Positions 2,009-19,895 of a DNA stretch of 20,774 nt are shown in pieces. Made by a program: the position numbers and the translations under genes. Origin of the DNA: Clostridia bacterium (GTDB taxonomy: Bacteria; CBDUZB01; JAGLHV01); the NCBI GenBank assembly GCA_030637025.1, contig DAOVVV010000004.1, forward strand, positions 62,001 to 82,774. Direction: 5' to 3'. The notes under the pieces are model-generated. The model did no database searches. It was not told the origin of the DNA and worked only from the letters and a program-made list of their open reading frames with translations. Every line of letters starts with the position of its first letter. Within the stretch, counting starts at the first letter, position 1.

Positions 2009-4096
2009 CTAAATTTCACCTTTTTCATATAATTTCACAAAAACTTTAACCACCAGGGGATCAAATTGGCTTCCACTGTTAACTAACAGTTCTTTTATAG
2101 CTTCGGCTTTCGGTTTTGCTTTCCGATAGGGCCGGTCTGAAGTCATTGCTTCAAAAGCATCAACTACACTTACAATTCTTGCCCCTATAGGAATTTTTTT
2201 TCCTTCTAATTTATCCGGATACCCTTTTCCATCAAATCTTTCATGGTGGTGTCTAATTACCCTTGCACTTATCTCCATCCCTTCTATTTTAATCAGCAAC
2301 TCATAACCGTCTACCGGATGTTTTCTTATTATCTCCCATTCTTCTTTAGTTAAAGTTTCTTTCTTATTCAAAATGCTTTTAGGAATAAATATTTTACCTA
2401 TATCATGCAATAATATTCCGGCGAAAAACATATCCTGAAAAAAACCTTTTTCTTTCGTTTCCGCATATTGTAATTCAGCCAGTAGTTTTTGTGCATATTT
2501 AAAAGTTTTTTCCACATGCTCATAGGTATAAAAGGGATCCATTTTATTAACAGTCATAGCAAAGGCAGCAACAATATTCTTGAAATTTTTTTCTACTTTT
2601 TGATAGGCATCGTACAGTTCTTTACTTAATTTTGTTTTCTCATGAATTTTTTGACGCAGGTCACTAATCAAAAAGGCATTTTTTATATTCATAGCTACAT
2701 CATCAGCAAAACCGCTTAAAATTTCCACCTCATTTTGTGTATATTCACCTTGCTCCCTTCCTCCTAAACAGAAAATACCCAAAATTTTCTTTCCATAACG
2801 GCTGGGAATTATTAAACTTGTTCTTAATAATTCCATCTGAACTTGTATATTCTCTAAAAGCATCATTTCTTCTTTTTCTTTCAAAAATTTATCGCTTTGC
2901 TGCCATTGTTTTATAATATCTAATTGTAAAAAATCTTTCTCTTCTTCTTTAATTAATCCATTTTTGTAAAACTTTTCACCTTTTTTGCTAAACCAGTTAA
3001 TTATGGGAGATTCTTTTTTCAATCTAAAATTTGTTATTTTATATGGTATTCTTCCCTTGCTAGTTTGAAGGAAATACTCTTTAGTGGAAACATCCAACAA
3101 AAATATACTTACCTGTCTTGATTCTATAATATTATAAACTGAATCAGCTACCTTCTCTACCAATTTTAAAGGGTCCTTAATTCTTACCATTTCTCCTGCT
3201 GTACGAATAAGAGCTTGTTGATAATCTTCTTCTTTACTGAAAATTACTTTTTGCATCCTCCAAATAAGATAAATAAAACATATTAAACAGGGAAAAATAG
3301 CAAACACCGACGCTTTCCATCCTCCCCAGGATATTATATTATACCCTAAATAAAAAAAACCAAAATATACTCCCACAGCAATTAAAAAAGAAACAATAAT
3401 CCTGGTAACTTTCTGCATTACTATTTCGATATTCATTAAATGATGCTTAACAATGGCATAAGCCATAATCGGAATATAAAGAAAAATAAAAAATATTCCA
3501 TAAGGAAGAATGGGAATATTAAAAACCATAAAAAAAGCTGTTGACCCGGTACTAAAAGCTATTATTGCCGAAAGGAACACGTACTTAATCTGATTTTTTT
3601 TTCTACCAAACGATTTCTTGTAAAAAACAAATAACAAATAATAACAATAACTAACACAAGAAAAAAACAGAACTACATAAAATGGATAAAAAATACCCGG
3701 TTCCACATAATAATTAAAAGGTCCTTTAGGTTTTACTGTTGCCAATAATCCCGCAAAATTAGAGATTTGCAAAATTAAAGAAATGGAATACAGAAAAATT
3801 AGTAGTTTTTTCTTTATTTTATGCATATCTAAAAAAGCAAGTATAAAATGAACAGCTACTACAGGAATAAAAATTGTCCCTAAAAGGTGAATGCTTTTCA
3901 ACCAAAAAATTGCTTCTTTTTTGTTTTTAGCAATTATAATCAGCCCAAATCCTAATGCCCAAAATGCCGCACTTAAACTCATTAAAACCCAAATTTTATT
4001 TATTTCATTATTTCTGTTTTTAAAATACACAAAAATTCCGAAAGATATACTGGTAATAGCAGTTAAAATTCCCGCTACGGCAAAAGACATACCCAT
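2009..4096 (-). CDS. Membrane-bound HD-GYP cyclic-dinucleotide phosphodiesterase: HisKA_7TM-like sensor + extra TMs + GAF-like + HD-GYP (paralog A)
   Basis: About 9 hydrophobic helices in the first ~280 aa; GAF-like region (SLIIPSRYGKKILGIFCLG...YTQNEVEILSGFADDVAMNI); LLHDIGK, HPVDG, HHHERFDGKGYP, VVDAFEAMTSDRPYRK. Confidence 0.93.
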   Translation of the reverse strand: MGMSFAVAGILTAITSISFGIFVYFKNRNNEINKIWVLMSLSAAFWALGFGLIIIAKNKKEAIFWLKSIHLLGTIFIPVVAVHFILAFLDMHKIKKKLLIFLYSISLILQISNFAGLLATVKPKGPFNYYVEPGIFYPFYVVLFFSCVSYCYYLLFVFYKKSFGRKKNQIKYVFLSAIIAFSTGSTAFFMVFNIPILPYGIFFIFLYIPIMAYAIVKHHLMNIEIVMQKVTRIIVSFLIAVGVYFGFFYLGYNIISWGGWKASVFAIFPCLICFIYLIWRMQKVIFSKEEDYQQALIRTAGEMVRIKDPLKLVEKVADSVYNIIESRQVSIFLLDVSTKEYFLQTSKGRIPYKITNFRLKKESPIINWFSKKGEKFYKNGLIKEEEKDFLQLDIIKQWQQSDKFLKEKEEMMLLENIQVQMELLRTSLIIPSRYGKKILGIFCLGGREQGEYTQNEVEILSGFADDVAMNIKNAFLISDLRQKIHEKTKLSKELYDAYQKVEKNFKNIVAAFAMTVNKMDPFYTYEHVEKTFKYAQKLLAELQYAETKEKGFFQDMFFAGILLHDIGKIFIPKSILNKKETLTKEEWEIIRKHPVDGYELLIKIEGMEISARVIRHHHERFDGKGYPDKLEGKKIPIGARIVSVVDAFEAMTSDRPYRKAKPKAEAIKELLVNSGSQFDPLVVKVFVKLYEKGEI

Positions 4097-4141
4097 TTTT
4101 ATTTCCTTTTTAGAGTTGGACTTATTACTTACATTTTTTAA

Positions 4142-4170
4142 ATTTTATTTTCTTTAAGCTATTTTGTCAA
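4142..4170 (-). promoter_or_regulatory. Sigma70-type promoter for HD-GYP paralog A
   Basis: Minus strand TTGACA (4170-4165), 17-nt spacer, TAAAAT (4147-4142), about 45 nt upstream of the ATG at 4096. Confidence 0.75.
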
Positions 4171-4185
4171 AATTTAAACCTGTTT

Positions 4186-5487
4186 TTAAAATAAATAACT
4201 AAAGGCAACTTGAAAAGAACTAATTTCTTTTTTATATTTTACATTATTTATTGTTTTACCACCCCAGCCATAGATATAACCAACATCAACCTGCCAGCCT
4301 TTTTCTTTATACCCCCCTCCGAAAGTTATATTATTTTTATCCAGATCTAATACGTTAGTCAGGCTTACCTGTTCATCGGGAACAGGTGTAGGATCGGTAT
4401 AAAAGCCTATTCTCGCTGCAAAATTTTTATCGAATTCATATTCTGCCCCAAGGCGAAACCGGTCTGTTTTTTTCCATTTTAAATCTTCATCACAGTCAAC
4501 AAGCATTATTCCACCATTATCAAAATTTATATCCTTTTTCATTTTTGTCCAATCGGTTCCCTGCCAATCAAAGCTAAGCCTCAATTCCGGCAATAGTTTG
4601 TAAACAATTCCCATTCCATAAGTCGTGGGATAATTAAATTTCTGGGTATAATCCGATTGTTCATCTAACGGAAAGAATAAATGGGTGTTTTCTACAATCC
4701 CTTTTCCCTGAAGATTAATTTTTGCTCCGGACCTATATACCCCTCCGATGTTTACTTTGTCCCGGGAAAAAGAATATAAAAAACCAAACACCCCTTCATA
4801 ACCAACCCCGTCACTTTTAAAAATAATTTTGTTCTGGTAAGGAAGCGTTGTTTTCCTTGCCTCTTTTTCCCATTCCCCCTGGAGAATATTCAATCCTGCT
4901 CCCATAGATAAAGCAGAAGACACTTTTCTGGCCAGAGAGACATTATAAACTACAATGTAAAAAGTCTCTTCATAAAAGGCGTTTATTCCCGGTACTTCTC
5001 CCACCATATCTTTCCATTTAGCTTGATAGCCTACGGGTTCATAAATGCTGGCTCCCACAGTAAAATCCCCTTTTATTCGACTATATGCTCCTATCCCCGG
5101 CAAATAAGAAATAACTGTAATTTTTTGTTGATTAAACTGCAAAGGTTCTGCATCCCCCGGAAGCTGATAAAAGATATCCCCTTGATTACTATCAGGATAA
5201 TTGAATAAACCTAATATACCATTAGCAATTGAATTACTATCTTCCCCCCGGACAGTTACACAATCTATTGCCAATCCAATCCCTTTTCCTTTCAGACGGG
5301 CTAATCCTGCCGGATTCCAATAACCGGCTGTCCAATCGTCAGCTACGGCAATAAAAGCACCTCCCATAGAATTTGCTCTAATTCCTAATCCCGGTCCTTC
5401 AAATCCTCCACCCCAACAAAAACTTATTTGGATTAATAAAAAGCCACTCACAAAAAATACAAATCTTTTTCCTCTTTCAAACATCAT
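4186..5487 (-). CDS. OmpP1/FadL/TodX family outer-membrane channel for hydrophobic molecules
   Basis: Signal peptide followed by GGF...GIRANSMGGAFIAVADDWTAGYWNPAGL (FadL hatch with NPA motif); amphipathic beta strands; RLGAEY...RIGFYTDPTPVP; C-terminal aromatic (SYLF). Confidence 0.9.
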   Translation of the reverse strand: MMFERGKRFVFFVSGFLLIQISFCWGGGFEGPGLGIRANSMGGAFIAVADDWTAGYWNPAGLARLKGKGIGLAIDCVTVRGEDSNSIANGILGLFNYPDSNQGDIFYQLPGDAEPLQFNQQKITVISYLPGIGAYSRIKGDFTVGASIYEPVGYQAKWKDMVGEVPGINAFYEETFYIVVYNVSLARKVSSALSMGAGLNILQGEWEKEARKTTLPYQNKIIFKSDGVGYEGVFGFLYSFSRDKVNIGGVYRSGAKINLQGKGIVENTHLFFPLDEQSDYTQKFNYPTTYGMGIVYKLLPELRLSFDWQGTDWTKMKKDINFDNGGIMLVDCDEDLKWKKTDRFRLGAEYEFDKNFAARIGFYTDPTPVPDEQVSLTNVLDLDKNNITFGGGYKEKGWQVDVGYIYGWGGKTINNVKYKKEISSFQVAFSYLF

Positions 5488-5524
5488 TCCCCCTTCTTAT
5501 CCTTAATTATTTCAGCTCATATTT

Positions 5525-5602
5525 TGGTAGCGCCAACGGGATTTGAACCCGTGTCTTAGCCTTGAGAGGGCTACGTCCTGGGCCGGGCTAGACGATGGCG
5601 CC
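5525..5602 (-). tRNA. tRNA-Glu (anticodon CTC), CCA encoded
   Basis: Reverse complement GGCGCCA TC GTCTAGCCCGGCCCAGGAC G TAGCC CT-CTC-AA GGCTA AGAC ACGGG TTCAAAT CCCGT TGGCGCT A CCA folds as a cloverleaf. Confidence 0.97.
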
Positions 5603-5624
5603 CCAATATTTTAAATATAGAAAT

Positions 5625-5653
5625 ACCTTACTAAAAAAAACTTAAAAAGTCAA
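5625..5653 (-). promoter_or_regulatory. Probable sigma70 promoter for tRNA-Glu (and possibly the FadL-like gene)
   Basis: TTGACT (5653-5648), 17 nt, TAAGGT (5630-5625), 22 nt upstream of the tRNA 5' end. Confidence 0.55.
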
Positions 5654-5777
5654 GAATTCCCCGCAGTTACCTTTCGTAAAAAGTCTAATTCGAACAACAA
5701 TTTTTCTCTGTTTTTTTAAAATTGACAGGAATTTCCGGTAAGCCTCTTGATTAAAAAATATTTCTTATTTATTATTT

Positions 5778-7880
5778 TTAAATTTCTCCCTTTTCACATA
5801 GTTCCACAAAAGCCTCTACTACCAGAGAATCAAACTGCGTTCCACTATTTTCTACAAGTTGTGTTATTGCCTCTTTTCTTGGTTTTGCTTTTCTGTATGG
5901 ACGGTCGGCAGTCATCGCTTCAAAAGCATCAACCACACAGACTATCTTTGCCCCTATAGAAATCTGGTCACCCTTCAATCCATCCGGATAACCCTTCCCA
6001 TCTATTCTTTCATGGTGATGCTTAATTATTTCAGCACTTATTTCCATTCCTTTTATGTTTTTTAATAATTCAAATCCATCTACCGGATGCCTTTTAATTA
6101 TTTTCCATTCTTCATCATTTAAAGAACCCGGTTTGTTTAAAATATTTTTGGGAATAAATATTTTTCCTATATCATGAAGAAGTATTCCGGCAAAAAACAT
6201 ATCCCTGGAAATAAGTTTTTCCTTTATCTGCTTTGGCTGCAATTTATCTACCAATTTCTGAGCATATTTAGAAGTCTTTTCTACATGCTCGTAAGTATAA
6301 TCAGGGTCCATTTTACTAACGGTCATTGCAAATGCGGAAATAATCTCTTTGAAAATCGTTTCTAACCTCTGATAAGCATTATACCGTTCTCTGCTTAACA
6401 TAGTTTTTTCATCAATTTGGTGACGTAAATCACTAATCAAAAAAGCATTACTTATATTCATAGCCATATCATCAGTAAATCCGCTTAAAACTTCAATATC
6501 CCTTTGGGTATACTGGTTTCCTCCTAAACATAAAATCCCTACTATTTTTTTTCCGTAACAACTGGGAATTATCAAGCTAGCCCTCAATGATTCCATTTGA
6601 AATTGTATTTTTATTAAAGACTCTATCCAGTTTTTTCCTTTTTCCGCTAATAATTTTTCACTATGCAACCACTCTCTTACAATATCTAACTGTAAAAAAT
6701 GCTTTTCTTCTTTCTTAATTAAACCTTGTTGATAAAACTCTTTACCGGTTTTTTTAAACCAATTAATTACCGGATCTTTTTTCTTCAGGACAAAACCGGT
6801 CTTCAAAAAAGGAAGCCTCCCTTTTCCTGCTTGCAAGACATATTCCTTAGTTTTATCATTTAATAAAAATATACTTACCTGCCTGACTTTAATAATATCA
6901 TAAACCGAATCTGCTACTTTTTCTATTAGTTTTAAGGGAATTTTTATTTTCACCATCTCCCGGGCAATACGTATAAGTGCCAATTGAGAATCCTCTTCCT
7001 TTTTAAAAATTATCTGTTGCATTCTCCAGATAAGATAAATAAAACAGCATAAACAAGGTAAAATGGCAAAAATAGTGGATTGCCAGGGGCTCCACCCTAT
7101 TATATTAAAGCCAAAATAAAAAAAAGCAAAATAAATACCAATAGCTATCAGAAAAGAAAAAATAATCCGTGTCGCTTTTTGCATTACCACCTTAATACCC
7201 ATTAAATGATGAGCAACAATAGAATAAGTAATTATAACAGCAAAAAGGACTGCAAAGATAAATCCAAAAGGATAAAATTCTACTCCATATTTAGGGATAT
7301 AATCAACAGCCGCCAGTAAGAGTAAAATACAAGCGATAAACACATATTTTATACGGGTAGTTTCAATAAAATCTAATGCCCCCCCCTCTTTGTAACGCGC
7401 ATACAAGTGATAGTGAAAATATAATAAATAAAATCCCCTGAAGAGAATAACACTAGAAATTAATAAATATAAAGGATGTAACAAGCCCGCTTTGGAATAA
7501 AACCCCCAATAATATTTATATACACCTGATAAAAAATAGGGGGAACTCATAGATAAGGGAGTAATAAAAAACATTACTAAATAAGAAACAATTACCCATT
7601 TTTTTTCTTTTTTTAACCTTAAAAAATCTATTATAAAATGATAAAAAGCAGGAGCGGTAAACATTGCGGCAGTACAGGATATTCTACAAAAAAGAACGGC
7701 TACTTTCTCATCTTTAAGTGAATAAGCAACCGCATAACCAATCATCCAGATAATTACACTACTACAAAAAATTAAAAAACTTAAAATGGACTTTTCAGCT
7801 TGATTTTTAAAAAAAACAAAAATTACTAAAAATAAAACAGAAATAGCTCCTATCAAAGGAAATAGCGAATAAAAATTCAT
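5778..7880 (-). CDS. Membrane-bound HD-GYP phosphodiesterase: HisKA_7TM-like sensor + GAF-like + HD-GYP (paralog B)
   Basis: Same architecture as 2009-4096; 7TM motifs YYWGFYSKAG and DYIPKYGVEFYPFG; LLHDIGK, HHHERIDGKGYPDGL, DAFEAMTADRPYRK; the start overlaps the upstream stop (TAATG at 7880). Confidence 0.93.
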   Translation of the reverse strand: MNFYSLFPLIGAISVLFLVIFVFFKNQAEKSILSFLIFCSSVIIWMIGYAVAYSLKDEKVAVLFCRISCTAAMFTAPAFYHFIIDFLRLKKEKKWVIVSYLVMFFITPLSMSSPYFLSGVYKYYWGFYSKAGLLHPLYLLISSVILFRGFYLLYFHYHLYARYKEGGALDFIETTRIKYVFIACILLLLAAVDYIPKYGVEFYPFGFIFAVLFAVIITYSIVAHHLMGIKVVMQKATRIIFSFLIAIGIYFAFFYFGFNIIGWSPWQSTIFAILPCLCCFIYLIWRMQQIIFKKEEDSQLALIRIAREMVKIKIPLKLIEKVADSVYDIIKVRQVSIFLLNDKTKEYVLQAGKGRLPFLKTGFVLKKKDPVINWFKKTGKEFYQQGLIKKEEKHFLQLDIVREWLHSEKLLAEKGKNWIESLIKIQFQMESLRASLIIPSCYGKKIVGILCLGGNQYTQRDIEVLSGFTDDMAMNISNAFLISDLRHQIDEKTMLSRERYNAYQRLETIFKEIISAFAMTVSKMDPDYTYEHVEKTSKYAQKLVDKLQPKQIKEKLISRDMFFAGILLHDIGKIFIPKNILNKPGSLNDEEWKIIKRHPVDGFELLKNIKGMEISAEIIKHHHERIDGKGYPDGLKGDQISIGAKIVCVVDAFEAMTADRPYRKAKPRKEAITQLVENSGTQFDSLVVEAFVELCEKGEI

Positions 7881-8965
7881 TACTTTTTCTTTCTCCTTGC
7901 TTTTCTTACTGCTTCTATTTTTTCTTTGGCAACCTCTTTACCAAAACTCCTAAACCGGGCTAATTTAAATCCGTGTTTAACCGCAAACTTAGAAATTGCT
8001 CTTACCTTGGCTAAGGATACATTGCCCCCTACAGAGGCATATTCGTGTTTTTCTTCCAAAGCTAAAATCATTGTTTCAGCCATACAGGCATAAATTAAAC
8101 CTGGTGCTAATCCAAAATTAAAATGTAAATCTACCTTTCCCGGCGGTTGCACAATTCCCCCATCAAGAACCAAAACATCATTTCTTAAAGCTGCTTTTTC
8201 CGGAGAAACATTATGGGGAAGGGAAACATCGCAAACTATTGTTCCGGGCATTAAATCCTCCACTTTAATTAAAGCAAAAGGAGCACTGGTTATTACTAAC
8301 ACTATATCTGACTGCGACAGTGCTTCTTTAAGATTATCCGTTATTTTAATTACGTTTTTTCCCTTATTTTGCGGAATAATTGAATCAGCTAATTTTTTAA
8401 TTTTTACTTTATTGCGAGCCATTAAAGTGAGATAAGAAACTCTTTCGGCTAAAATAGTAGCACAGATACTGCCGATTAATCCCGTAGCTCCAATAATGGA
8501 TACCTTTGCCTTATCTATTTCTATACCTACATCATTAGCTGCTTTCAACACCGCCTGAATCACTATCTCTATAGTATAACTAGTCCCGGTAGTAACAGGA
8601 ATATTTAATTTTTTCGATAGTAAAGCGCCCCTTTTTCCTACCCAAGCGGCATAAGCTCCTAAACCAACTATATCGCAACCTAACTTTTGGGCAATTCGTC
8701 CTGCCCTAACCAATTTTTGTAAAATAAAAGTTGAATCCATTTTTAGTATTTGCTCGGGTATTAATGGTAAAAGAATCATCTCCCCCTCTGCTTTTTTCCC
8801 GGTCAACGATTGCAGACCAGTTACTGACTCTCTTTTTAAAGGGGGTATCCACCGAAGTACTCGCTCTACCAGATGCCTCCTTTTCACTTTAAGATTAGGT
8901 TCATTAAATCCATCTCCTAAACTCTCTACATCATGCGGATGAAAAATAAAAGCAAATTTTCCCAT
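7880..8965 (-). CDS. Acyl-ACP/acyl-CoA reductase-like NAD(P)H oxidoreductase (cyanobacterial AAR / PigE-TamH N-terminal reductase family; often auto-annotated as shikimate dehydrogenase)
   Basis: KFAFIFHP start, IVGLGAY...VTTGTSYT, Rossmann IIGATGLIG, CDVSLPHNV, VLDGG, and the catalytic-Cys motif YACMAETMILALE. Confidence 0.85.
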   Translation of the reverse strand: MGKFAFIFHPHDVESLGDGFNEPNLKVKRRHLVERVLRWIPPLKRESVTGLQSLTGKKAEGEMILLPLIPEQILKMDSTFILQKLVRAGRIAQKLGCDIVGLGAYAAWVGKRGALLSKKLNIPVTTGTSYTIEIVIQAVLKAANDVGIEIDKAKVSIIGATGLIGSICATILAERVSYLTLMARNKVKIKKLADSIIPQNKGKNVIKITDNLKEALSQSDIVLVITSAPFALIKVEDLMPGTIVCDVSLPHNVSPEKAALRNDVLVLDGGIVQPPGKVDLHFNFGLAPGLIYACMAETMILALEEKHEYASVGGNVSLAKVRAISKFAVKHGFKLARFRSFGKEVAKEKIEAVRKARRKKK

Positions 8966-8976
8966 TATTTATTCTG

Positions 8977-9540
8977 CTAACCTCCCCCTATTTCTTTCCT
9001 AATAGCCCTAAGCATACCTCTAAAATTAAGTTTTAACTTGCGCCTTAAAACATCTCCGACAAAGGTCTCAAAAGATGGAAATCCCCAGCCTAAATTAACG
9101 GATATAAAAACCTGTGTCCCTTCCGGGGCCGGTAAAAATTTCCATTCTCCCTCATAAATTTCATAATCCCCTTTTAACATCTTAAATTTTATTGTTTTAT
9201 CCCGCTTATTAAAAATATTCTCTTCCCTCCATTGAACGGGAACTCCTTCAACATCGATTTTCCAGTCAACTACCTTTCGATTATTCTTTTTTTCGATAAC
9301 TTTTATTGATTTGATTCCTTCTACAAATTGGGGGAAATTTTCGATATGGCTGACAAAATCATAGACAAAGTCTATGTTTTTATCAACAACAGTTGATACT
9401 TTAACCGCTCTGCGCCAACATTTCCGGCGCTCTATTCTTCTCCTGTCTGAAAAGTTTATGTCAACAAGAAATTTTCTCCGTATTTCTTCCCTTCGCCTTT
9501 TCTTCGAGCGTACACTTTTTTCTTTTCCCGTAAAAATGAT
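8977..9540 (-). CDS. SRPBCC/START-fold (polyketide cyclase/aromatase-like) lipid-binding protein, ~187 aa, with Arg-rich N-terminal extension; probable non-canonical start (ATC 9540 or ATT 9537)
   Basis: The track's 67-aa ORF extends 120 stop-free codons upstream: ...VKVSTVVDKNIDFVYDFVSHIENFPQFVEGIKSIKVIEKKNNRKVVDWKIDVEGVPVQWREENIFNKRDKTIKFKMLKGDYEIYEGEWKF..., a typical SRPBCC pattern. A strong SD (AAAGGAGG) lies 6 nt before ATC, with an in-frame TAA just upstream. Confidence 0.82.
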   Translation of the reverse strand: MIFTGKEKSVRSKKRRREEIRRKFLVDINFSDRRRIERRKCWRRAVKVSTVVDKNIDFVYDFVSHIENFPQFVEGIKSIKVIEKKNNRKVVDWKIDVEGVPVQWREENIFNKRDKTIKFKMLKGDYEIYEGEWKFLPAPEGTQVFISVNLGWGFPSFETFVGDVLRRKLKLNFRGMLRAIRKEIGGG

Positions 9541-9956: not shown

Positions 9957-12900
9957 TCATTCTTCTTTTACTACTGGTTTTATTATAGCTTTAGGGCAAA
10001 TTGCCTTAAATCCACAAAATGCACATTCTTTTTTTTCACTTATGCCGTATTCGCTCCGGGTAATTTGAGCAATTATTCTTTCTGCTTTTTTCAAAATTTC
10101 TTCTGTGGGTTTTATCTCTAAAGAAAATCCCTGCCCCTGACGCAAAGAATAAAGTGTTGTTTTATCTACCGGTTTTAACCCCAACACCCTCTCCGCACCT
10201 ATTCCATATAATTGCATCGAAAAATCATATCGATCTATATTAATTGATTTACTCATTTTATAATCAATAATCTCAAAACTTCCATTATCCTGTTCATCTA
10301 TACGGTCTATCGTTCCTTTAATCAAAAACCCATTAAGGTTTAAATGAAAGCTTTTTTCCACTGCCTTTGTTTTTTTGCAGGAAGGGTTATAATCACTTTT
10401 TATAATTTTATTAAATATTTCCTGTATTTGAGCATTATAAAGAGAATCCGCATCTTCCGAAGCAATTCCGTAGGTTTTGGCTAATTTCTTAAACCGGGAA
10501 AATATTTTTTTATCATCCCATTTTTCCTGCTTTCCAAACAAGGTAAATTCCTGTAAAATTTTATGCATTATCATTCCCAAAACCGTTTCATCTATTTTTC
10601 CCGTATTAAGATTTTCATTAGGTTTACTATTAGCTAAAACGCCTATTTCATAACGGTATTTATACTGCAAAGGACACTGGTCAAAAACAGCAAGCTGGGT
10701 AACACTAAAAGATTTTTTTGTTTCTTTTTCCTCAGAGGAACAATATTTAAAATCAAGATGCCGCACAATTTCCTCCCTGTTTATTTTTTGTTCCGGATTA
10801 AAAGAATATCCCTTGTATTTTTTTTCTCTCCATTCTTCCTTTATCGGAAAAACCTTATTCGCTTCAATTAATAACTCACCATATTCTTCTTTTAATATTA
10901 ATTTATCCTCCTGCATCTTAAAAAAATAATCCATAAAACGGCTTTTTCTTCTTTTTCCTTTTCCGTCTTCTTTTATTCTTCCGGAAAGAATCAAGCGTTT
11001 TTTAGCCCGGGTCATTGCTACATAAAGAAGCCTTTCTTCTTCACAACTAAATCGCTCTTTATTTTTTTTCTTTATTTTTTCTTCTTCCTCTTTGATGTCT
11101 TTACACAAAAATCCTTCTTTTGCATCAAAATAGTACCTGGGGGTACGACTTCTGGGAGGAAAACTGTCCGGAGAAATATTAGCCACAAAAACCACCGTAA
11201 ATTCCAAACCCTTGGCCTGATGAATTGTCATTAACTGGATGACATCTTCTATTTCGTGATTTTCTTCGCTTTCCATTGTTTCCTGATTAATAACCTCTTT
11301 AAGATAGGCGATAAAATCTTCTAAAACAGGAATCAGATTTCTCTCTTCAAACCGGCAGACCAATTGATAAAATTTATCAATATTAGCCAGGCTTCTTTTT
11401 CGCTCTATGGGAGATAGTGTTTGTACATAGCTCGTATAACCGCTATTTTGAATCAGACAATATAAAAACCGTCCTAACGGTAATTTATTTTTTTGGTAAA
11501 TAAATTCATCAATAAATTCGCGCAATCTTCTTAAAGAGGCCTTTTCCTCATCCCCAACATTTAAACTCTGTACCTTTCCTAAGGCATCATAAATAGGATA
11601 ATTCCCCTTGCCGATTATATCTTTATCTTCCATCTCTTCACCAGGTCTTAAATTAGCTAATTTTTGTAAGGTAGAATTCCCAATTCTGTATATCGGCCCC
11701 CTAAGGACCCTCACTAAATTTATATCGTCAAAGGGATTATTAATCACACCTAAAAGCGAAATAATGTCTTTTATTTCCGGACGGTCGTAATACCCGGAAC
11801 CTCCGACAGTTATAAAAGGTAAATGATGTTTATACAAAATTTCTTCATAAATACCAATATTTCGTATGCCCCGGAATAAAATCACAATATCCTTACATTG
11901 TAGCGAACCGGAATCGCTTTCCAAAAGACCCAGTATTCGCTGGGAAATAAATTCCGCTTCTTCCTCCGCGCTACCGGCAAGATTTATTTCACAGCAAAGA
12001 GAATCTTTATTCCTGCCGGAATAAAGCGGTTGAAAATAAGGCATTTGTCCCTGAAAACATTGGTTACTTAATTTTAAAATTTCGTCAAAAGAACGGAAAT
12101 TACTAGTTAAAGAAAGGCTTTTTCCTTCTTTTTTTGTTTCCCGGTCAAAATTCATCATATTTTCCGGACGGGCATCACGAAAAGCATAGATAGATTGATT
12201 CACATCCCCTACCGCAAAATAATTTCCACTATAAGAAGATAATTCCCTCAACAATTTATCCTGCAGAAAAGTAGTATCCTGATATTCATCTACCAGAATA
12301 TATTTAAAAAAATCTTTGTATTTTTCTTTTATCTGTTTATTCTCCAGCAGGGATAATCCGGCTAAAAGAATACTTTGAAAATCAAATTTATTCTCCTTTT
12401 TTAATCTTTCCTCATAAGCGGCATAAAGGCAAAAAATAATCTCGCCTAATTTTTTTTTCTCATCTAAATCATTTATTTTTTCTATGTTTTCCTTAAACAT
12501 AACAGGGTTTATAGCATTGTTTTTCAATCGACGGATAAAAGAATACACTTCTCTCAGAAAAAAATCCATACTTACATTAAAGGATATTGCGGGTAAATCC
12601 CGGGTATTAAAGACATTTCTTGCTTCTTCTAAAAATAAAAGTTTACTTTCTATTTCCTCCATAATTACAAAATCCGGATCAATTCCTACTAAAAAAGCAT
12701 TTTCTCTTAAAAGTCTAAGGCAAAAAGCATCTATTGTGCTGATATACGCCCCGGATAGAACAGCCGCCATATTAGAAAATTCAGTAAGATTTTCCTTGAT
12801 TTTCGTCCGCATCTGGTTGGCCGCTTTTTTGGTAAAGGTTACGGCCACAATGCTCATAATAGCATCTTCTAAAACATATCCTTCCTTAAGCAAAGTTTTT

Positions 12901-13022
12901 AATATCTTGATATATCTATTAGTTAAAACCAGTGTTTTTCCGGTACCGGCACCGGCCTTAAGGCAGACCTTTCCTTCAATCTGATTTATTGCTGTAATTT
13001 GTTCATCGGTTAATTTATTCAT
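9957..13022 (-). CDS. UvrD/SF1A helicase fused to PD-(D/E)XK RecB-like nuclease with Fe-S cysteines; AddA/AdnB-like motor subunit
   Basis: LTDEQ Q-motif, AGAGTGKT, VTFTKKAA, STIDAF, LVDEYQD, VGDVNQSIYAFR, LTSNFRS, MTIHQAKGLEF, EEERLLYVAMTRAK; nuclease KGTIDRID...IIDYK; CP...CAFCGFKAIC. Start placed at MNKLTDEQ (13022), which avoids overlap with the upstream gene. Confidence 0.92.
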   Translation of the reverse strand: MNKLTDEQITAINQIEGKVCLKAGAGTGKTLVLTNRYIKILKTLLKEGYVLEDAIMSIVAVTFTKKAANQMRTKIKENLTEFSNMAAVLSGAYISTIDAFCLRLLRENAFLVGIDPDFVIMEEIESKLLFLEEARNVFNTRDLPAISFNVSMDFFLREVYSFIRRLKNNAINPVMFKENIEKINDLDEKKKLGEIIFCLYAAYEERLKKENKFDFQSILLAGLSLLENKQIKEKYKDFFKYILVDEYQDTTFLQDKLLRELSSYSGNYFAVGDVNQSIYAFRDARPENMMNFDRETKKEGKSLSLTSNFRSFDEILKLSNQCFQGQMPYFQPLYSGRNKDSLCCEINLAGSAEEEAEFISQRILGLLESDSGSLQCKDIVILFRGIRNIGIYEEILYKHHLPFITVGGSGYYDRPEIKDIISLLGVINNPFDDINLVRVLRGPIYRIGNSTLQKLANLRPGEEMEDKDIIGKGNYPIYDALGKVQSLNVGDEEKASLRRLREFIDEFIYQKNKLPLGRFLYCLIQNSGYTSYVQTLSPIERKRSLANIDKFYQLVCRFEERNLIPVLEDFIAYLKEVINQETMESEENHEIEDVIQLMTIHQAKGLEFTVVFVANISPDSFPPRSRTPRYYFDAKEGFLCKDIKEEEEKIKKKNKERFSCEEERLLYVAMTRAKKRLILSGRIKEDGKGKRRKSRFMDYFFKMQEDKLILKEEYGELLIEANKVFPIKEEWREKKYKGYSFNPEQKINREEIVRHLDFKYCSSEEKETKKSFSVTQLAVFDQCPLQYKYRYEIGVLANSKPNENLNTGKIDETVLGMIMHKILQEFTLFGKQEKWDDKKIFSRFKKLAKTYGIASEDADSLYNAQIQEIFNKIIKSDYNPSCKKTKAVEKSFHLNLNGFLIKGTIDRIDEQDNGSFEIIDYKMSKSINIDRYDFSMQLYGIGAERVLGLKPVDKTTLYSLRQGQGFSLEIKPTEEILKKAERIIAQITRSEYGISEKKECAFCGFKAICPKAIIKPVVKEE

Positions 13023-13041
13023 ATTTTTATTATCCCGGGCC

Positions 13042-15978
13042 TCAAGATTCGCAGAGCCAGCGGAAATCACAATTTTTACAGGTATTAAATCCCTGTTTAG
13101 GCTTATATTCCCCCTCCATAATTTCCCTGCTAACCTCTAATAAACTCTCTTTAGCTTCTTCCAATTCCGAAGTACTAAGCCATTTTATTTGCTTTTTATT
13201 CTTATCGGGTTCCTTTTCCCCGTCACTTAATATCCGGAGTGTTGTTTTAAAATCATTACCTGTTTTTTTCTTTAACCAGTAAATACTAAAAGAACAAACT
13301 TTATCCCCTACAATTCCTTTTGCCCCCAGCAAGTAAATTACCGGCTGAAAATCTGTTTTTCCCTTAATCCATTTGTTCCAAAGGGTATCTCCCTGATAAG
13401 CAAACGCTTTGGTGGTTTTATAATCAATCAGCTCACAGGACGAATCTTCCGTTATATCTATTCTGTCTATTCTTCCTTTAAAGCGAAACCCTTCCGTTTC
13501 CCACTTAAAAGGTAATTCACATTTTAGTGTTTTCAAAAAAATTCTTGTTTTTTCCAATTTTAGATAACGGGCTAAAATATTATATATTTCCTGCTCGTAT
13601 ATCTTTTTTTCAAATCTGGTTTCAAAATTTTTCGCTTCTTCCCGCCAGACCTTCCTGATTATTCCATCTAACTTATGAGCTATCGCCTTATCCTGTAATT
13701 GTGCCGGGGTCGTATACTCTTTATGAAACAACTCCAGTATCCGATGAATTAATATGCCTAAAAAAAGGGCAGGCTGAGGAGGACTAAAAATATTCAGACA
13801 ATAGCGAAAAAAGAATTTAGCGGGACAATCAAGGTATGTCTTTATTTTGGAAGGGGTAAAATAAAAATTTTGAGGCAATTCAACTTTATCATATAAATTA
13901 GCAAGCGAGTATTTTTCTTTAATCCACTGGTAAAACAAAAATTTATTTTCATCTTTCTTTAAACATTCTTCAAGTTCCATATTTGGACCGTCACGCAAAA
14001 GCAATCCCAGCAAATCATCATAAGTCAAAATTTCTTCGTCATCCGAAAGAAATTTTTTTCCCTTTTTTTCTAAAAACTCCATCAGCAACCCGGATATTTC
14101 TTCCTCTCTTTGTGAATCATATCTTTTTGCACAAGTTAAATAGAGCATATTCCTTGCCCGGCTGACTGCTACCTGAAAAATCTTTTCTTCCTCTTTTATA
14201 TACTCTACTGACTTTATTAACGGCTTAAGCCCTAAAAGTTCTTTTTCCTTATTATTTAAAAGAATATCCTCTTTATATTGCCTGGGGAATTTCCCTTCCA
14301 CCAATCCGGTAACAAACACTACCTTAAAAAATTTTCCCTTAGCCTGCTGAACCGTCATTATTTTTACTACATCCTCTTCTTCTTCCAATTGAATATCCAA
14401 TTCCCGTCCGTAGGAAGACATCAATCCCTGCAAGTTCTCCATAAACTTGTCAAATCCTATTTTTTTCCCGGAAAACCGGTTTTCTATTCTTTGATATTTT
14501 TTTATTATTTCATTAAAATAATTAAGCTGTCCGGCTATTTTTTTATCATCTCTACTTTGCTGCAGAAAACCAAAATCCAAATATATTTTATAGAGAATTT
14601 CTTCCAGCGATTTTTCCGTTTTAATTTGTTGAAACTCTTTTATTTTTTCTACAAATTCAGAAAGGACTTTTCGGGTCTGAGTTTTTAAATAAGGAAACGA
14701 AGAATTTTTCAATTCCGCAAAAATTTCCAACAGGTTTTTATTTTTTTTCTCGCTCAACGTAACCAATCTTTCCATATCTACTTTATCTATAGAAAAATTT
14801 AAGGTGGTTAATGCCCAAATGACATGAAAATTAGAGAGGTTTTTCTTTTTAAATTTATCTATTACCTGTAAAACGGAAATAAGGCTGATAATTAATGGTT
14901 GCTTGAAAAAACCTGTCCCCCCCAGCACTATACAGGGAATCCGGTAAAACGACAACGCATTAACTAAACTATCTGTTTCTTTTCCTATATCCCGGGAGAG
15001 AATAAGAAAATCCTTATAATATAAGGTTTCTCCTTTTTTATTTTTTTCTCTTATTAATTTATAAATCCGGCGGGCAATAAAAAAACTTTCTTCCTTCCCT
15101 GTATCAAATTTATAAGGTAAAATTTTAGCCGAAGAGACATTTGCTTTCGGAGTAATGGTTATAATTTGCGGGTTGAATTGCTGAATAAACTTTTTCTTTA
15201 TTTCTTCCGGCCTTGCTCCCCGAAAAGAAAAAATACTTTCTTTAACGTTGCCGGCTACTATGAGGTCACTTTTATCTTCAGCAAAAATTTGCAGAAGTCG
15301 AAATTGCTGATAATCAATATCCTCAAAATCATCCACTAAAACATACTTGAACTTCTTTCTATAGGTCTCGAATACATCCTTTCTTCCCTTAAATAAATCA
15401 ATTGTCTGAAGGGTAAGATCCCGAAGATCCAGATAATCACTTTTGTGAAGCTGAGTATTATATTTATAAAAAATTTTTTCTAATTCCGCAAACTTTCCGC
15501 CTTCTTCTTTCAATCGTTTAAGTTTATGGAGATTTTGTTTTATCAAATCAACAAAGTTTACCATTTCATTAATAAAAAAAACAGAAGACTTTGCCTTAGC
15601 ATAAAATTTTAAATTCAGAGAGGTTTCTTCCAAAAGCCTTTTAAGAACTAACTTTTCTTCCATACCTCCGATTATCTGGAAATTAGGGCCAAGAAATGTT
15701 TTTTGCGGTAAGGTGGATAACTGATAATAATTATCTCTAAGGATTTTTTTACAAAAAGAAGAAAAACTATTAATCCAGAGTTCGGCAAATCCTTCCTCTG
15801 TCCATTTAATGAGCCTTTCTTTTACTTCTTCGGCTATTTTATCATTAAAAGTAAAAAAAAGAATTTCCTCCGGTTTTGCCTTTTTGCTTTTTATTATTTC
15901 TTTTAGATTTTTATAAAGGTAATCAGTTTTTCCTGATCCGGGAGGCCCCGTAATGTAAACTACTTTATTCTCTCCCAT
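13042..15978 (-). CDS. UvrD-like (degenerate motor) + PD-(D/E)XK nuclease with Fe-S cysteines; AdnA/AddB-like partner subunit
   Basis: GPPGSGKT, LVDDFEDID, ESIFSFRGA, MTVQQAKG, VAVSRAR; nuclease FKGRIDRID...LIDYKT; CP...CKNCDFRWLC; directly upstream of the second helicase-nuclease. Confidence 0.88.
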   Translation of the reverse strand: MGENKVVYITGPPGSGKTDYLYKNLKEIIKSKKAKPEEILFFTFNDKIAEEVKERLIKWTEEGFAELWINSFSSFCKKILRDNYYQLSTLPQKTFLGPNFQIIGGMEEKLVLKRLLEETSLNLKFYAKAKSSVFFINEMVNFVDLIKQNLHKLKRLKEEGGKFAELEKIFYKYNTQLHKSDYLDLRDLTLQTIDLFKGRKDVFETYRKKFKYVLVDDFEDIDYQQFRLLQIFAEDKSDLIVAGNVKESIFSFRGARPEEIKKKFIQQFNPQIITITPKANVSSAKILPYKFDTGKEESFFIARRIYKLIREKNKKGETLYYKDFLILSRDIGKETDSLVNALSFYRIPCIVLGGTGFFKQPLIISLISVLQVIDKFKKKNLSNFHVIWALTTLNFSIDKVDMERLVTLSEKKNKNLLEIFAELKNSSFPYLKTQTRKVLSEFVEKIKEFQQIKTEKSLEEILYKIYLDFGFLQQSRDDKKIAGQLNYFNEIIKKYQRIENRFSGKKIGFDKFMENLQGLMSSYGRELDIQLEEEEDVVKIMTVQQAKGKFFKVVFVTGLVEGKFPRQYKEDILLNNKEKELLGLKPLIKSVEYIKEEEKIFQVAVSRARNMLYLTCAKRYDSQREEEISGLLMEFLEKKGKKFLSDDEEILTYDDLLGLLLRDGPNMELEECLKKDENKFLFYQWIKEKYSLANLYDKVELPQNFYFTPSKIKTYLDCPAKFFFRYCLNIFSPPQPALFLGILIHRILELFHKEYTTPAQLQDKAIAHKLDGIIRKVWREEAKNFETRFEKKIYEQEIYNILARYLKLEKTRIFLKTLKCELPFKWETEGFRFKGRIDRIDITEDSSCELIDYKTTKAFAYQGDTLWNKWIKGKTDFQPVIYLLGAKGIVGDKVCSFSIYWLKKKTGNDFKTTLRILSDGEKEPDKNKKQIKWLSTSELEEAKESLLEVSREIMEGEYKPKQGFNTCKNCDFRWLCES

Positions 15979-16016
15979 TTTTAAGCCTCTTGAGTTAACC
16001 AGGTCAACTCCGTTCC

Positions 16017-16670
16017 TTATTGTTTTATAATTTTTTTTGTTGTTTTAAAATGCATTTTAGCGACTTTATTTAATATTGCCGGACCGTGTTTTTGAACTAA
16101 AAACCGTGCTTTTTCCTCCACCAGGGAAGAAGCTCCCCGCGGTAAATCAGTGCCGATTTCCTGAGACAGAGATTGCATCCTTTTAATAAATTCCGCCCGG
16201 GCTAAAATAGAAGCAGCCGCTACGGCTAAATCATCTTCCGCTTTAGGCCTTAATTCTAAAAAAACCCGTTTCCCTTTTTTCATCAGAGCATTTAAAACAA
16301 ACTTTTCATCCCCGAATTGGTCGGTAACTACCTTTTCACAATCAACTTTATCAAGTAAATTTTCTATAACCCGGGCATGTCCCCAAGCCAGCAAACGATT
16401 AAGATTTTTTATCTTAGCATACAACTCATTATATTTTTCCGGGCCGATAACAACAATAGAATAATGACTGTTCATTTTACGCAAAGAATTGCTTATTTTA
16501 TTCATAACATTATCCGAGGTTATTCGTTTACTATCCCGCACCCCTAATTCGATTAGTTCCTTTATTCTGGTTTTCTCAATATAGAACCCGGCAATCACCA
16601 ATGGGCCAAAGTAATCCCCTTTTCCCGATTCATCAGTTCCTATCCAACTTGAAGATGTTCCTTTTATCAT
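16017..16670 (-). CDS. rnhC: Ribonuclease HIII, catalytic domain only
   Basis: WIGTDESGKGDYFGPLVIAG, GVRDSK, KYNELY...NLNRLLAWGH, DQF, KAE...VAAASILAR, LPRGAS, VAKMHFKT. Confidence 0.9.
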   Translation of the reverse strand: MIKGTSSSWIGTDESGKGDYFGPLVIAGFYIEKTRIKELIELGVRDSKRITSDNVMNKISNSLRKMNSHYSIVVIGPEKYNELYAKIKNLNRLLAWGHARVIENLLDKVDCEKVVTDQFGDEKFVLNALMKKGKRVFLELRPKAEDDLAVAAASILARAEFIKRMQSLSQEIGTDLPRGASSLVEEKARFLVQKHGPAILNKVAKMHFKTTKKIIKQ

Positions 16671-16707
16671 TAAAAATCCTTTTTATTAAAATTAGGATTA
16701 AAGAAAA

Positions 16708-16875
16708 AAAATGAAGGTAAAATATGTTTTGAACGACTTAGCAAATTTTAGCAAAAATTAGCGTTAAAAAAATAAGCTTGTCTGAGCAAAGCGAGTTGCT
16801 TATTTTTAGCTTGTTTTTGCGTGCCCACAGGGTAAAATTATGCGTTTAGAGAAAAACATATTTTGCCTTTATTTT
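16708..16875 (+). repeat. Structured long-hairpin repeat, copy 1 (168 nt, with inner TTGTCTGAGCAAAGCGAGTT-capped arm)
   Basis: 5' aaaatgaaggtaaaatatgtttt pairs with 3' aaaacatattttgcctttatttt; inner helices gcaaatttta/taaaattatgc, gcaaaaattagc/gcttgtttttgc, aaaaataagc/gcttattttt. Confidence 0.9.
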
Positions 16876-17010
16876 CCCGGTTCCAAATTCAAATTTCCCG
16901 CCTTAAAGACTGGCGGACTATCGCTCTGCTCCAGCAAAAAAAATGAAGGTGAAATGTGTTTTGAACAATATAGCAAATTTTTTGCGTAAAAGCCATTATT
17001 TGAGTCTTTC

Positions 17011-17033
17011 GGGCGACCAAGGGTCGCCCCTAC
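17011..17033 (-). repeat. GTAG-family REP element
   Basis: Reverse complement GTAG-GGGCGACC-CTT-GGTCGCCC: GTAG foot plus a perfect 8-bp stem. Confidence 0.8.
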
Positions 17034-17042
17034 TTTTATCTT

Positions 17043-17084
17043 TTGTCTATGGACTATCGACTGTGGACTATGGACTATGGACTA
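17043..17084. repeat. Heptamer tandem repeat (TGGACTA) x~6
   Basis: ttgtcta tggacta tcgactg tggacta tggacta tggacta. Confidence 0.9.
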
Positions 17085-17287
17085 TTATTTTTTTGCGTGC
17101 CCGAAGGGTAAAATTATGCGTCTAGAGAAAAACATATTTTGCCTTTATTTTCCTCGTTCCAATTCCTGCCTTATAAATACAATTGTCACAAATAGCCACA
17201 AATCCCCTTTTTCAAAGGGGGAAATTCATTCGTGTCATACATTGTCAAAAACTACATTTGATTACTCTTTCAAATTTTCAAAACAAA

Positions 17288-17385
17288 AAAATGAAGGTGA
17301 AATGTGTTTCAAACGATATATTAAATTTTAGCAAAAATTAGCGTTAACAAAATAAGCTTGTCTGAGCAAAGTGAGTTGTTTACTT
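17288..17385 (+). repeat. Structured repeat, copy 3 (5' half only, runs into the SPFH stop codon)
   Basis: aaaatgaaggtgaaatgtgtttcaaacgatatattaaattttagcaaaaattagcgttaacaaaataagcttgtctgagcaaagtgagttg matches the first ~90 nt of copy 1. Confidence 0.88.
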
Positions 17386-18123
17386 TTTTATAAATTGTTT
17401 AAATAAATCTATGGGTATAGGGAAAATCGTAGTAGAATTATTTTCCGCAGCAATTTCTTTTAGCGTTTGTAAATATCTTAATTGTATTGCTACCCCGGTT
17501 TCCTCAATTACCTTTGCCGCCATAGAAAGTTTTTCTGATGCCTGATATTCCGCTTCTGCAGCAATAACCTTAGCCCTTCTGTCTCTTTCCGCTTCAGCTT
17601 GTTTCGCCATCGCCCGCTTCATTACTTCCGGTAATTCCACATCTTTTATTTCTACCACACTTACCTTAATACCCCAGGGATCAGTTAATTCATCAACTAC
17701 TTTTTGCAGTTTCTGATTAATCGATTCTCTTTCGGAAAGCAACGCATCCAATTCCACTCCCCCCAATACACTACGCAGGGTTGTTTGGGCAATTAAGGAT
17801 GTTGCGTGAAAATAGTTATTTACCTTGGTCACCGCATTATTGGGATTCATTACCCGGAAATAAACCACTGCATTTACCTTTATGGTAACATTGTCTTTAG
17901 TAATTATCTCCTGTTCAGGAACATCCATAGTTATTACTCTCAAATTTATCCTTTCAATTTTATCTATAAACGGAATAATTATAAATAATCCCGGCCCTTT
18001 AGGTTCCGGTAACAAACGGCCCAACCTAAAAATTACTGCCCTTTCATACTCCCTGATAACTTTTACCGCGTTAAAGAAAAGAACAACACCTACAAAAAAC
18101 AAACCATACATTAACCCACCCAT
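17380..18123 (-). CDS. SPFH/band-7 stomatin-like (slipin) protein
   Basis: N-terminal [76 protein letters not shown]. Confidence 0.96.
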
Positions 18124-18127
18124 AACC

Positions 18128-19468: not shown

Positions 19469-19520
19469 TTAATTCCTCCTGAGTATATAGGGTTCCCTAT
19501 TTTCAAATTTCAGTTTCCTT

Positions 19521-19549
19521 AAAATATCATATTTTTAGAGAGTATGCAA
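19521..19549 (-). promoter_or_regulatory. Possible sigma70 promoter for nfeD-SPFH
   Basis: TTGCAT (19549-19544), 17 nt, TATTTT (19526-19521) with TGn; AGGAGG SD before the nfeD ATG. Confidence 0.45.
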
Positions 19550-19756
19550 GCATAAAGTCTATCGGAAAGTTTGTTTGTGGGTCAGGTTCAGTATCTCCCC
19601 GTGTGGGTGTTTCTTTGTAATAGAAAAACCGACTTGAAAGAGGGAAATCAAGAGAAGCAAGGGAAAATTAATTTGAGTAAAGGAGACATTTTTTTAAATG
19701 GCATCTATTATTCCCCTAATGGGTGAAGTAGTAAAGCAAAATATTAACAAGTAAGT

Positions 19757-19864: not shown

Positions 19865-19895
19865 TTTCTACCTTCTTTTTAAAATCTATCCCTCT

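Follow-up and report, generated by a model that had tools for sequence, protein, structure and literature searches.

A conserved reductase, SRPBCC and 7TM-receptor cassette as a candidate lipid-signal system in a Clostridia bacterium and Omnitrophota

The window analysed here is a stretch of 20,774 nt from the genome of a Clostridia bacterium, labelled G000, in which genes for an SRPBCC/START-fold protein, an acyl-thioester reductase of the PigE/acyl-ACP reductase (AAR) type, a FadL-family channel and two membrane-bound HD-GYP receptors (A and B) lie together. We read this locus, with moderate confidence, as a make-and-sense system for a released lipid signal with cyclic di-GMP (c-di-GMP) as its output. 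It resembles CqsA/CqsS, LuxM/LuxN, PhcB/PhcS and Rpf in logic, although the feasible tests of membership placed it in none of these systems.

The Vibrio CqsA/CqsS pair is alike in that its signal is acyl-derived and its synthase and sensor are encoded together, and CqsS binds the acyl-derived CAI-1 inside a receptor membrane domain of six transmembrane (TM) helices (PMC13729885). Unlike in that pair, the synthase here would be a thioester reductase acting with a START protein in place of a pyridoxal phosphate (PLP) enzyme, and the output is an HD-GYP domain. No PLP alpha-oxoamine synthase was found in the window locus, one CqsS-named sequence aligned in its kinase part only, and no CqsS chain was among the top 50 fold matches; enzymes of the CqsA (alpha-oxoamine synthase) family fill the synthase slot in three relatives of the locus (L305, L309 and L361, where L-numbers denote individual loci or regions retrieved from genome, metagenome and phylum scans). 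Legionella LqsA/LqsS is a comparable synthase-sensor system. In LuxM/LuxN (AinS/AinR), LuxN has nine helices and the luxM synthase gene lies directly upstream of luxN, a helix layout like the probable seven plus two of the receptors here, combined with a synthase of another class. The sensor halves of 10 receptors gave no match to the LuxN model NF041945 at E values up to 10. According to PMC10653868, the N-terminus of LuxN lies in the periplasm and the number of its TM helices is odd.

In Xanthomonas, the fatty-acid-derived diffusible signal factor controls an HD-GYP c-di-GMP phosphodiesterase (PMC5391125, PMC8895600). Unlike RpfF/RpfC/RpfG, the window has neither a crotonase-type synthase nor a separate kinase and receiver, and its sensor and HD-GYP domain form one protein. 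In Ralstonia PhcB/PhcS, 3-OH MAME, a fatty-acid methyl ester made by a methyltransferase, is sensed by a membrane kinase (PMC11960443). Pairs of a methyltransferase and a seven-TM-helix (7TM) kinase also occur in the wider family of the cassette (L302, L304, L315, L316 and L318), whereas the window locus has no methyltransferase and the one PhcS-named sequence compared (P0117) reached an hhalign probability of 0.6% against the 7TM profile.

The nearest named receptor is PrsK (TIGR02916, the XrtA/PEP-CTERM kinase), which has the same architecture and whose stimulus has been described as obscure (PMC1569441). Residues 16-688 of an Omnitrophota cassette kinase aligned to positions 11-677 of the PrsK model, with an E value of 1.7e-11 for the sensor half alone, and scored 138.8 against a cut-off of 300; the window HD-GYPs did not match the model, and neither PrsR/PrsT nor a PEP-CTERM context was found in the window. 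E. coli DgcT/CdgI are reported to join a 7TM domain of GPCR-like type to a c-di-GMP enzyme (PMC10760455). One paper that names HisKA_7TM lists it as a sensor domain without going further, and no description of a reductase-SRPBCC-7TM cassette was found in the full texts searched, a coverage that excludes subscription papers and bioRxiv supplements. The cassette is real, conserved and apparently undescribed, and in it a known signalling logic is carried out by an uncommon enzyme and receptor fold, with an output in one component that is likewise uncommon.

Linkage of enzyme and receptor genes

The linkage of these genes exceeds chance and recurs in many distant genomes. The initial annotation had proposed a gene-neighbourhood search and held that a lack of conserved linkage would speak against it; reductase, SRPBCC and HisKA_7TM genes, the latter with HD-GYP or kinase output, proved to be linked in the genus, in Omnitrophota and in metagenomes. 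Among 80 relatives of the reductase kept out of 566 in a genome-collection scan, seven had both SRPBCC and 7TM genes: G002, which belongs to the same genus, five Omnitrophota, and L059 with an HD-GYP output. Profiles were built from these loci and the window proteins (alignments A3, A4 and A5, with 9, 10 and 11 rows). In a metagenome scan that kept 80 of 527 loci, seven loci, all outside the profile-building set, had one or both partners (five had both, and two have too little sequence on one side). The six highest reductase scores among non-training metagenome loci all came with an SRPBCC gene.

In Omnitrophota, the phylum of G061/L027, the reductase profile matched 140 of 401 genomes at E <=1e-20, and 60 loci were taken from 165 matches, by eye down the ranking with longer contigs favoured. 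An SRPBCC domain was present in 48 of these loci, fused to the reductase in 32, and 53 had a same-strand 7TM gene downstream (directly adjacent in 30). Most relatives use a histidine kinase output instead of HD-GYP. These counts bear on the possibility that the window genes came together by chance at a tRNA-linked hot spot for insertions and are functionally unconnected. A tRNA-Glu does lie inside the locus and gene content varies between sister genomes, yet translational coupling, gene fusions, recurrence in the Omnitrophota loci and in other lineages, and negative controls all run counter to such an origin, which is very improbable and already largely refuted by the linkage counts and the control given below.

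Starting from the receptor, the 7TM profile matched 20/20 reductase-positive and 11/20 reductase-negative Omnitrophota. Regions were retrieved from 10 of the 11 reductase-negative positives, with one truncated receptor left uncounted, and an enzyme-receptor pair was present in 10/10; 13 of the 16 receptors of at least 650 aa were encoded directly behind an enzyme. The enzymes were FAR, acyl-CoA ligase with acyl carrier protein (ACP) and FadL clusters, alpha-oxoamine synthase, methyltransferase, ketosynthase clusters, PlsC with HAD (L306) and HMG-CoA-reductase-like proteins, and seven short 7TM proteins without GAF lay mostly in enzyme-free arrays. Five more regions from reductase-positive genomes had enzyme genes ahead of the 7TM kinase in every case (5/5). 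In 57 distant genomes there were 10 matches to the 7TM profile, spread over 9 genomes, of which seven followed an enzyme (one labelled by BLAST alone and preceded by FadL) and three did not. As a control, 25 non-7TM kinase-like or HD-GYP genes were taken in G000; none of the 23 with a same-strand upstream gene followed an acyl-thioester enzyme, the upstream genes including one methyltransferase and six without a Pfam label at E 1e-12. Three unrelated thioester reductases fall among the occupants of the synthase slot, the AAR type, FAR/NAD_binding_4 (L300, L372) and the HMG-CoA-reductase-like type (L329, L310). The window locus belongs to a wider family whose members place many kinds of enzyme in this slot. 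Tandem arrays of short 7TM kinases without GAF were also seen beside Omnitrophota cassettes (L303, L311, L317, L255, L263 and L268) and are possibly banks of orphan receptors.

The 60 Omnitrophota loci carried accessory genes for ketosynthases (15), PlsC-like acyltransferase (14), class III aminotransferase (5) and FadL (3), as well as FabG, ACP, FabZ, flavin oxidoreductase, GMC oxidase, radical SAM, ICMT-like, LuxD-like/methyltransferase and formyltransferase genes. The locus could be a small secondary-metabolite cluster with a built-in feedback sensor, for an antimicrobial, a surfactant, a surface lipid or fatty amines, as in tambjamine and prodigiosin precursors, with a product that mainly serves something other than signalling. 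Ketosynthase clusters are frequent, the aminotransferase follows the reductase where it occurs, and PigE and TamH, the nearest characterised enzymes, make natural-product precursors. We nevertheless consider this improbable: the minimal cassette is just one or two enzymes plus a receptor, the Omnitrophota loci have no constant exporter or resistance gene, the output in the window is a cyclic-dinucleotide phosphodiesterase, which would switch lifestyle and not activate a cluster, and orphan receptors for the product of another lineage suit communication better. PilZ domains on partner enzymes at L116 and L329 suggest that these enzymes are tied to c-di-GMP, with feedback from the second messenger to synthesis. 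Receiver domains fused to a ketosynthase or PlsC-like acyltransferase directly upstream of 7TM kinases (L313:3871-5559, L319:3319-5022 and L306:4171-5604) were seen separately, suggesting phosphorylation control of the enzyme itself.

Reductase, SRPBCC protein and receptors

The 361-aa reductase is nearer the PigE N-terminal domain than cyanobacterial AAR and falls below the NCBIfam cut-offs of both, PigE/TamH NF053554 and the AAR equivalog TIGR04058. Its GATGLIG nucleotide motif and the ACMAE motif with Cys294 align with solved PigE (4ppm) and AAR (6jzq), and Cys294 is invariant across the nine rows of reductase alignment A3. The catalytic Cys is the acyl acceptor in AAR (Cys294) and PigE (Cys296), and enzymes of this type channel their aldehyde product to the next protein or enzyme (PMC8341465). 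The reductase is like PigE/TamH and cyanobacterial AAR in its fold, in its catalytic Cys and in the motif that binds NAD(P)H, and unlike them in being stand-alone or SRPBCC-fused and receptor-linked, with neither a class III aminotransferase fusion nor a deformylating oxygenase in the locus; the search for the aldehyde-deformylating oxygenase, absent from the reductase neighbours (SRPBCC and HD-GYP B), covered the locus and not the rest of the genome.

AAR-like genes of Bacillota and Chloroflexota were rejected as members, since both partners are lacking and 24/25 non-cassette reductases form a separate starred clade. Those of Bacillota (L025-L101) lie in a conserved block of HTH regulator, 300-aa AAR-like, 360-aa AAR-like, greA and lysS genes, with a BadF/BadG-like activase gene, labelled by its sequence, nearby in six loci. 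In Chloroflexota (L054, L061, L063, L065, L083, L089 and L100), the AAR-like gene lies within a block of DUF4388, small GTPase, alpha/beta hydrolase, V4R, hexapeptide-repeat and response regulator genes that also encodes a kinase of roughly 2,470 aa containing some ten GAF domains, which ties this reductase family to signalling a second time.

The SRPBCC protein has a helix-grip fold whose nearest solved structure, by both sequence and fold, is Thermus TTHA0849 (2d4r; Foldseek E 7e-14). The fold also fits TcmN/ZhuI-type polyketide aromatases/cyclases, which rank behind TTHA0849, and the window locus has no ketosynthase; a probable role is that of a lipid/aldehyde carrier or cyclase. Thermus thermophilus, the home of TTHA0849 and one of the control genomes, gives a HisKA_7TM signal itself. 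Besides the Omnitrophota fusions, SRPBCC and reductase are fused in G002; a complex prediction for the pair gave a median of 0.26 against a mark of 0.32 and was not used as evidence either way.

The SRPBCC frame has no open reading frame of at least 80 aa from an ATG, GTG or TTG start. Given that an AAGGAGG site followed after 8-9 nt by an ATT codon is kept in G000, G001 and G002, the start is probably the ATT at 9537, which would give an Arg-rich extension of roughly 40 residues. This extension (DRR..ERRxxxR; window 9414-9540) is probably coding, because its substitutions in the alignment of the three genomes, read by eye, include synonymous ones. It ends in ERRxxxR, which we take to resemble the first PilZ motif, so that the extension may be a PilZ-like c-di-GMP switch, a lead at this stage. 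The predicted model of the extension is a helix plus disorder, and a [DE]RR motif lies upstream in only 3/59 SRPBCC frames; metagenome locus L108 has, by eye, a similar DRR-rich extension.

Both receptors exceed the gathering score of HisKA_7TM. The HD-GYP motifs (metal-binding HD, HHE, GYP and DxxT.DRPY) are kept in B in comparison with PmGH (4mcw; E 5.6e-35) and are likewise visible in A. PmGH and a cGAMP phosphodiesterase (5z7c) score the HD-GYP domain of B nearly equally; its substrate is probably c-di-GMP. After the 7TM domain, both proteins have two extra hydrophobic segments (about residues 238-290 of B, from the alignment), so the receptors probably have nine helices in all. The model of the B sensor domain, from a 10-row alignment, reached a predicted local distance difference test score of 87 and shows seven helices, a beta-hairpin between TM4 and TM5, and no soluble periplasmic domain. 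Among 48,161 chains it best matched G-protein-coupled receptor (GPCR) folds, with ADGRL3 on top (Z 17.3, root-mean-square deviation 4.1 A over 212 residues, 9% identity), in a comparison in which helical bundles score high easily, rank 50 still had a Z of 12.4, and the best Foldseek E value was just 1.3e-3. The 7TM profile matched no solved structure by sequence at E up to 10, and an ESM Atlas search returned HisKA_7TM clusters and one unnamed cluster only. The predicted domain is thus a GPCR-like fold resemblance, which proves neither descent nor ligand; beyond the low identity, the receptors differ from eukaryotic GPCRs in direct enzyme output and the lack of a G protein.

In the 7TM domain the two receptors are 24% identical, against 66-70% from residue 222 onward, and their sensors fall on opposite sides of a starred branch in the 7TM tree (FastTree), so that HD-GYP A is, by its sequence, a chimera with a different sensor on a B-like cytoplasmic part. 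HD-GYP A looks like an orphan receptor of another type, because its orthologue in G003 (64.5%) directly follows a PilZ-HMG-CoA-reductase-like gene, for which one query found no match in G000, G001 or G002. The initial annotation had assigned both receptors to the product of the locus; B stands as the cognate receptor, but A carries a foreign sensor whose matching enzyme is in a sister genome.

Sensor B and the window reductase have similar company in the trees. The reductase groups with G001, G002, L216 and L219 (98*, FastTree), and sensor B groups with the same four plus L059 and L300 (98*, FastTree). Among relatives of sensor B that lack an AAR partner, L300 is the closest; its enzyme is a FAR, unrelated but with the same product type, so that a reduced-acyl ligand is suggested. 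The loop motif DYIPKYG has a Lys, limited to the sensor-B clade and one AAR-linked Omnitrophota clade, that suggests possible Schiff-base capture of an aldehyde. The residues specific to the B clade also include the hairpin sequence YWGYYSKAG.

Locus layout and gene order in the genus

The five co-oriented genes and their domains (Table 1) were confirmed by Pfam and NCBIfam scans, and the 11-nt SRPBCC-reductase spacing and the TAATG overlap of reductase and HD-GYP B given in the initial annotation are exact; the cluster is, however, split by a tRNA-Glu, and SRPBCC lacks a standard start codon. Because the tRNA interrupts the genes and gene content is shuffled in sister genomes, a single five-gene operon was rejected, and the genes probably form two or three transcription units. 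FadL starts 37 nt past the tRNA, which lies between it and HD-GYP B. The site ahead of HD-GYP A is the best sigma-70-like match in the scanned region, where 41 sites compare with 33.1 +/- 4.8 in shuffles and make this weak evidence.

Table 1. Features of the candidate cassette in the window
Feature	Position	Strand	Evidence and remarks
SRPBCC/START-fold protein	8977..9540	-	PF03364, 60.3 bits (cut-off 23.4)
Stand-alone PigE/AAR-type acyl-thioester reductase, candidate signal synthase	7880..8965	-	NF053554 198.6 bits (cut-off 850); TIGR04058 113 bits (cut-off 449.7)
HD-GYP B: HisKA_7TM, two further TM segments, GAF, HD-GYP	5778..7880	-	Pfam; PF16927 30.1 bits (gathering score 28.6)
tRNA-Glu(CTC)	5525..5602	-	Missed by the initial annotation; same position in G001 and G003
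OmpP1/FadL/TodX-family outer-membrane channel	4186..5487	-	PF03349 97.9 bits
Sigma-70-like promoter consensus before HD-GYP A, TTGACA-17-TAAAAT	4142..4170 (read 4170-4142)	-	11/12 match, consensus only
HD-GYP A: HisKA_7TM-GAF-HD-GYP	2009..4096	-	PF16927 62 bits (gathering score 28.6)

The flanks (1-1868 and 9957-20411) are ordinary, with genes for a NIL-ferredoxin, two UvrD-nuclease (AddA/AddB-like) proteins, RNase H, an SPFH and NfeD pair and an ORF6N protein, as well as a membrane protein with a TPR-like end, judged from sequence. Contigs of sequencing run X4, which come from the study that is also the possible source of the window, differ at 0-2 positions in each long piece, the start region of SRPBCC among them, and are not independent; those of run X7 cover HD-GYP B and the reductase and leave much of HD-GYP A bare, a gap that proves nothing.

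G000 (2.36 Mb, 33.5% GC, 97.8% complete) returned as close relatives only three further genomes of its genus, G001, G002 and G003; the remaining ones shared just the domain. The core of SRPBCC, reductase and HisKA_7TM-GAF receptor is shared with G001 and G002. The order in G001 is FadL, SRPBCC, reductase, receptor B, tRNA-Glu, FadL and a second, broken SRPBCC; G002 has FadL, SRPBCC and reductase in one frame, and receptor B, with the end of B, FadL and SRPBCC on another contig. In the same slot, G003 has the PilZ-HMG-CoA-reductase-like gene, the HD-GYP A orthologue, tRNA-Glu, FadL and SRPBCC; this genome is 86% complete, has no reductase match, and its contig begins at the PilZ-HMG-CoA-reductase-like gene. 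Alternative enzyme-receptor pairs thus hold the same chromosomal slot within one genus. G000 probably lost the upstream FadL, given that its homology to the upstream region of G001 and G002 begins only at about the last two FadL codons. The second SRPBCC of G001 (L014:14707-15173) is split over two frames and intact in G002 and G003; it is missing from G000, where HD-GYP A takes its position.

The FadL-like gene is the sole PF03349 match over the cut-off in G000, and all six over-cut-off FadL-family genes of the four genus genomes fall in this locus. It belongs to this wider family but scores below the FadL equivalog NF007988 (39.4 bits against a cut-off of 585). About 19 more G000 genes share just the N-terminal motif of the FadL-like protein, an expanded family (PorV/PorQ-like). 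A second G000 cassette (G000:C7:45020-51025; L103:9024-15029) consists of SRPBCC, two ketosynthase-family genes, a 7TM-GAF histidine kinase and a receiver-HTH regulator; its ketosynthase-kinase-regulator part is kept in 4/4 genus genomes, preceded by SRPBCC wherever the contig extends far enough, and in G002 two ICMT-like methyltransferase genes are inserted after SRPBCC.

Proposed circuit and its significance

In the proposed circuit, the reductase would move a fatty acyl group from ACP or coenzyme A to Cys294 and reduce it with NAD(P)H to the aldehyde, given that the residues are kept and that PigE and AAR have this chemistry. The SRPBCC protein, in many loci one polypeptide with the reductase, would receive or shelter the reactive hydrophobic product or cyclise it, and extra enzymes would tailor this product further in relatives. 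This product would enter the membrane and cross the outer membrane, presumably aided in the genus by the FadL-family channels linked to the locus. It would then bind the GPCR-like 7TM domain of HD-GYP B and, via the extra helices and GAF domain that the architecture places in between, alter cyclic-dinucleotide hydrolysis. HD-GYP A, as the gene swap suggests, might eavesdrop as an orphan receptor on the signal of a sister lineage, made there by the HMG-CoA-reductase-like synthase.

Several observations weigh against this circuit. Most AAR-like relatives (73/80 loci in each collection scan) lack both partners, and no HisKA_7TM ligand was found in the full-text literature searched. Seven of the 60 Omnitrophota loci have no 7TM gene; five of these hit a contig edge within 3.2 kb, and L252 and L272 are true misses, with >5.6 kb (about 5.7 kb) free of one. 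HisKA_7TM receptors also occur with no adjoining enzyme at L312, L314, L352, L359 and L360 and on Manganitrophus plasmids, where no synthase was seen near the 7TM kinases; plasmids of Burkholderiaceae carry shorter HisKA_7TM kinases, which in both records inspected face a thioesterase gene. FadL, which the initial annotation counted as a part of the system, is confined to this locus within the genus but absent from 57/60 Omnitrophota loci, and the PlsC-like acyltransferases beside the reductase fit membrane-lipid synthesis equally well. The co-variation of enzyme and sensor speaks for the circuit: over 40 adjacent pairs, reductase and 7TM identities had a rank correlation (rho) of 0.39, or 0.33 once the GAF region is removed, compared with 0.28 between reductase and GAF. 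Plain co-inheritance would also give such co-variation, however, kin are not independent, and the trees come from FastTree only.

Some of these points favour membrane-lipid homeostasis, in which the enzymes make a structural or modifying lipid (ether lipid, wax ester or fatty alcohol) to which the 7TM domain in the same cell responds, either directly or through the physical state of the bilayer, with no signal between cells. DesK, which reads bilayer state for its desaturase, is an analogue. Besides the PlsC-like genes and the scarcity of FadL beyond the genus, such a role fits PlsC with HAD at L306, ICMT/PEMT-like proteins and FabG/FabZ/ACP elsewhere, and a sensor that has no soluble periplasmic domain. 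It is unlikely, however, given that a physical sensor need not swap with its enzyme, yet A with the HMG-CoA-reductase-like enzyme and B with AAR replace each other at one locus. Additionally, sensor domains are very diverse where outputs are conserved, orphan receptors and receptor arrays are common, the cassette is patchy within Omnitrophota, and every FadL gene of the genus lies in the locus.

A released signal therefore remains our preferred reading, and a broader one can be tentatively entertained, to which we give slightly less than even weight: HisKA_7TM(-GAF) proteins may be a widespread family of receptors with a GPCR fold that detect lipid signals made by the cells themselves, each encoded directly behind a synthase module that can be exchanged (AAR with START, FAR, HMG-CoA-reductase-like, ketosynthase, alpha-oxoamine synthase or methyltransferase). 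Omnitrophota and further uncultured phyla would share this chemical language, and the window would hold its one-component c-di-GMP version based on a fatty aldehyde, next to an orphan receptor for the different signal of a sister lineage. PrsK-type sensors would then gain a ligand class.

The small cassette names its own enzyme-receptor pairs, which makes the ligand class of HisKA_7TM/PrsK-type sensors testable in E. coli, and the pairs swapped within one genus provide a built-in specificity control. If the proposed circuit is true, it would add a synthase class (an AAR/PigE-type reductase with START) and a receptor class (HisKA_7TM, predicted to be GPCR-like) to bacterial signalling, and it would be common, given that the reductase occurs in about a third of the sampled genomes of Omnitrophota, an abundant uncultured phylum. 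It would also bear on whether GPCR-shaped, lipid-sensing 7TM receptors exist in bacteria.

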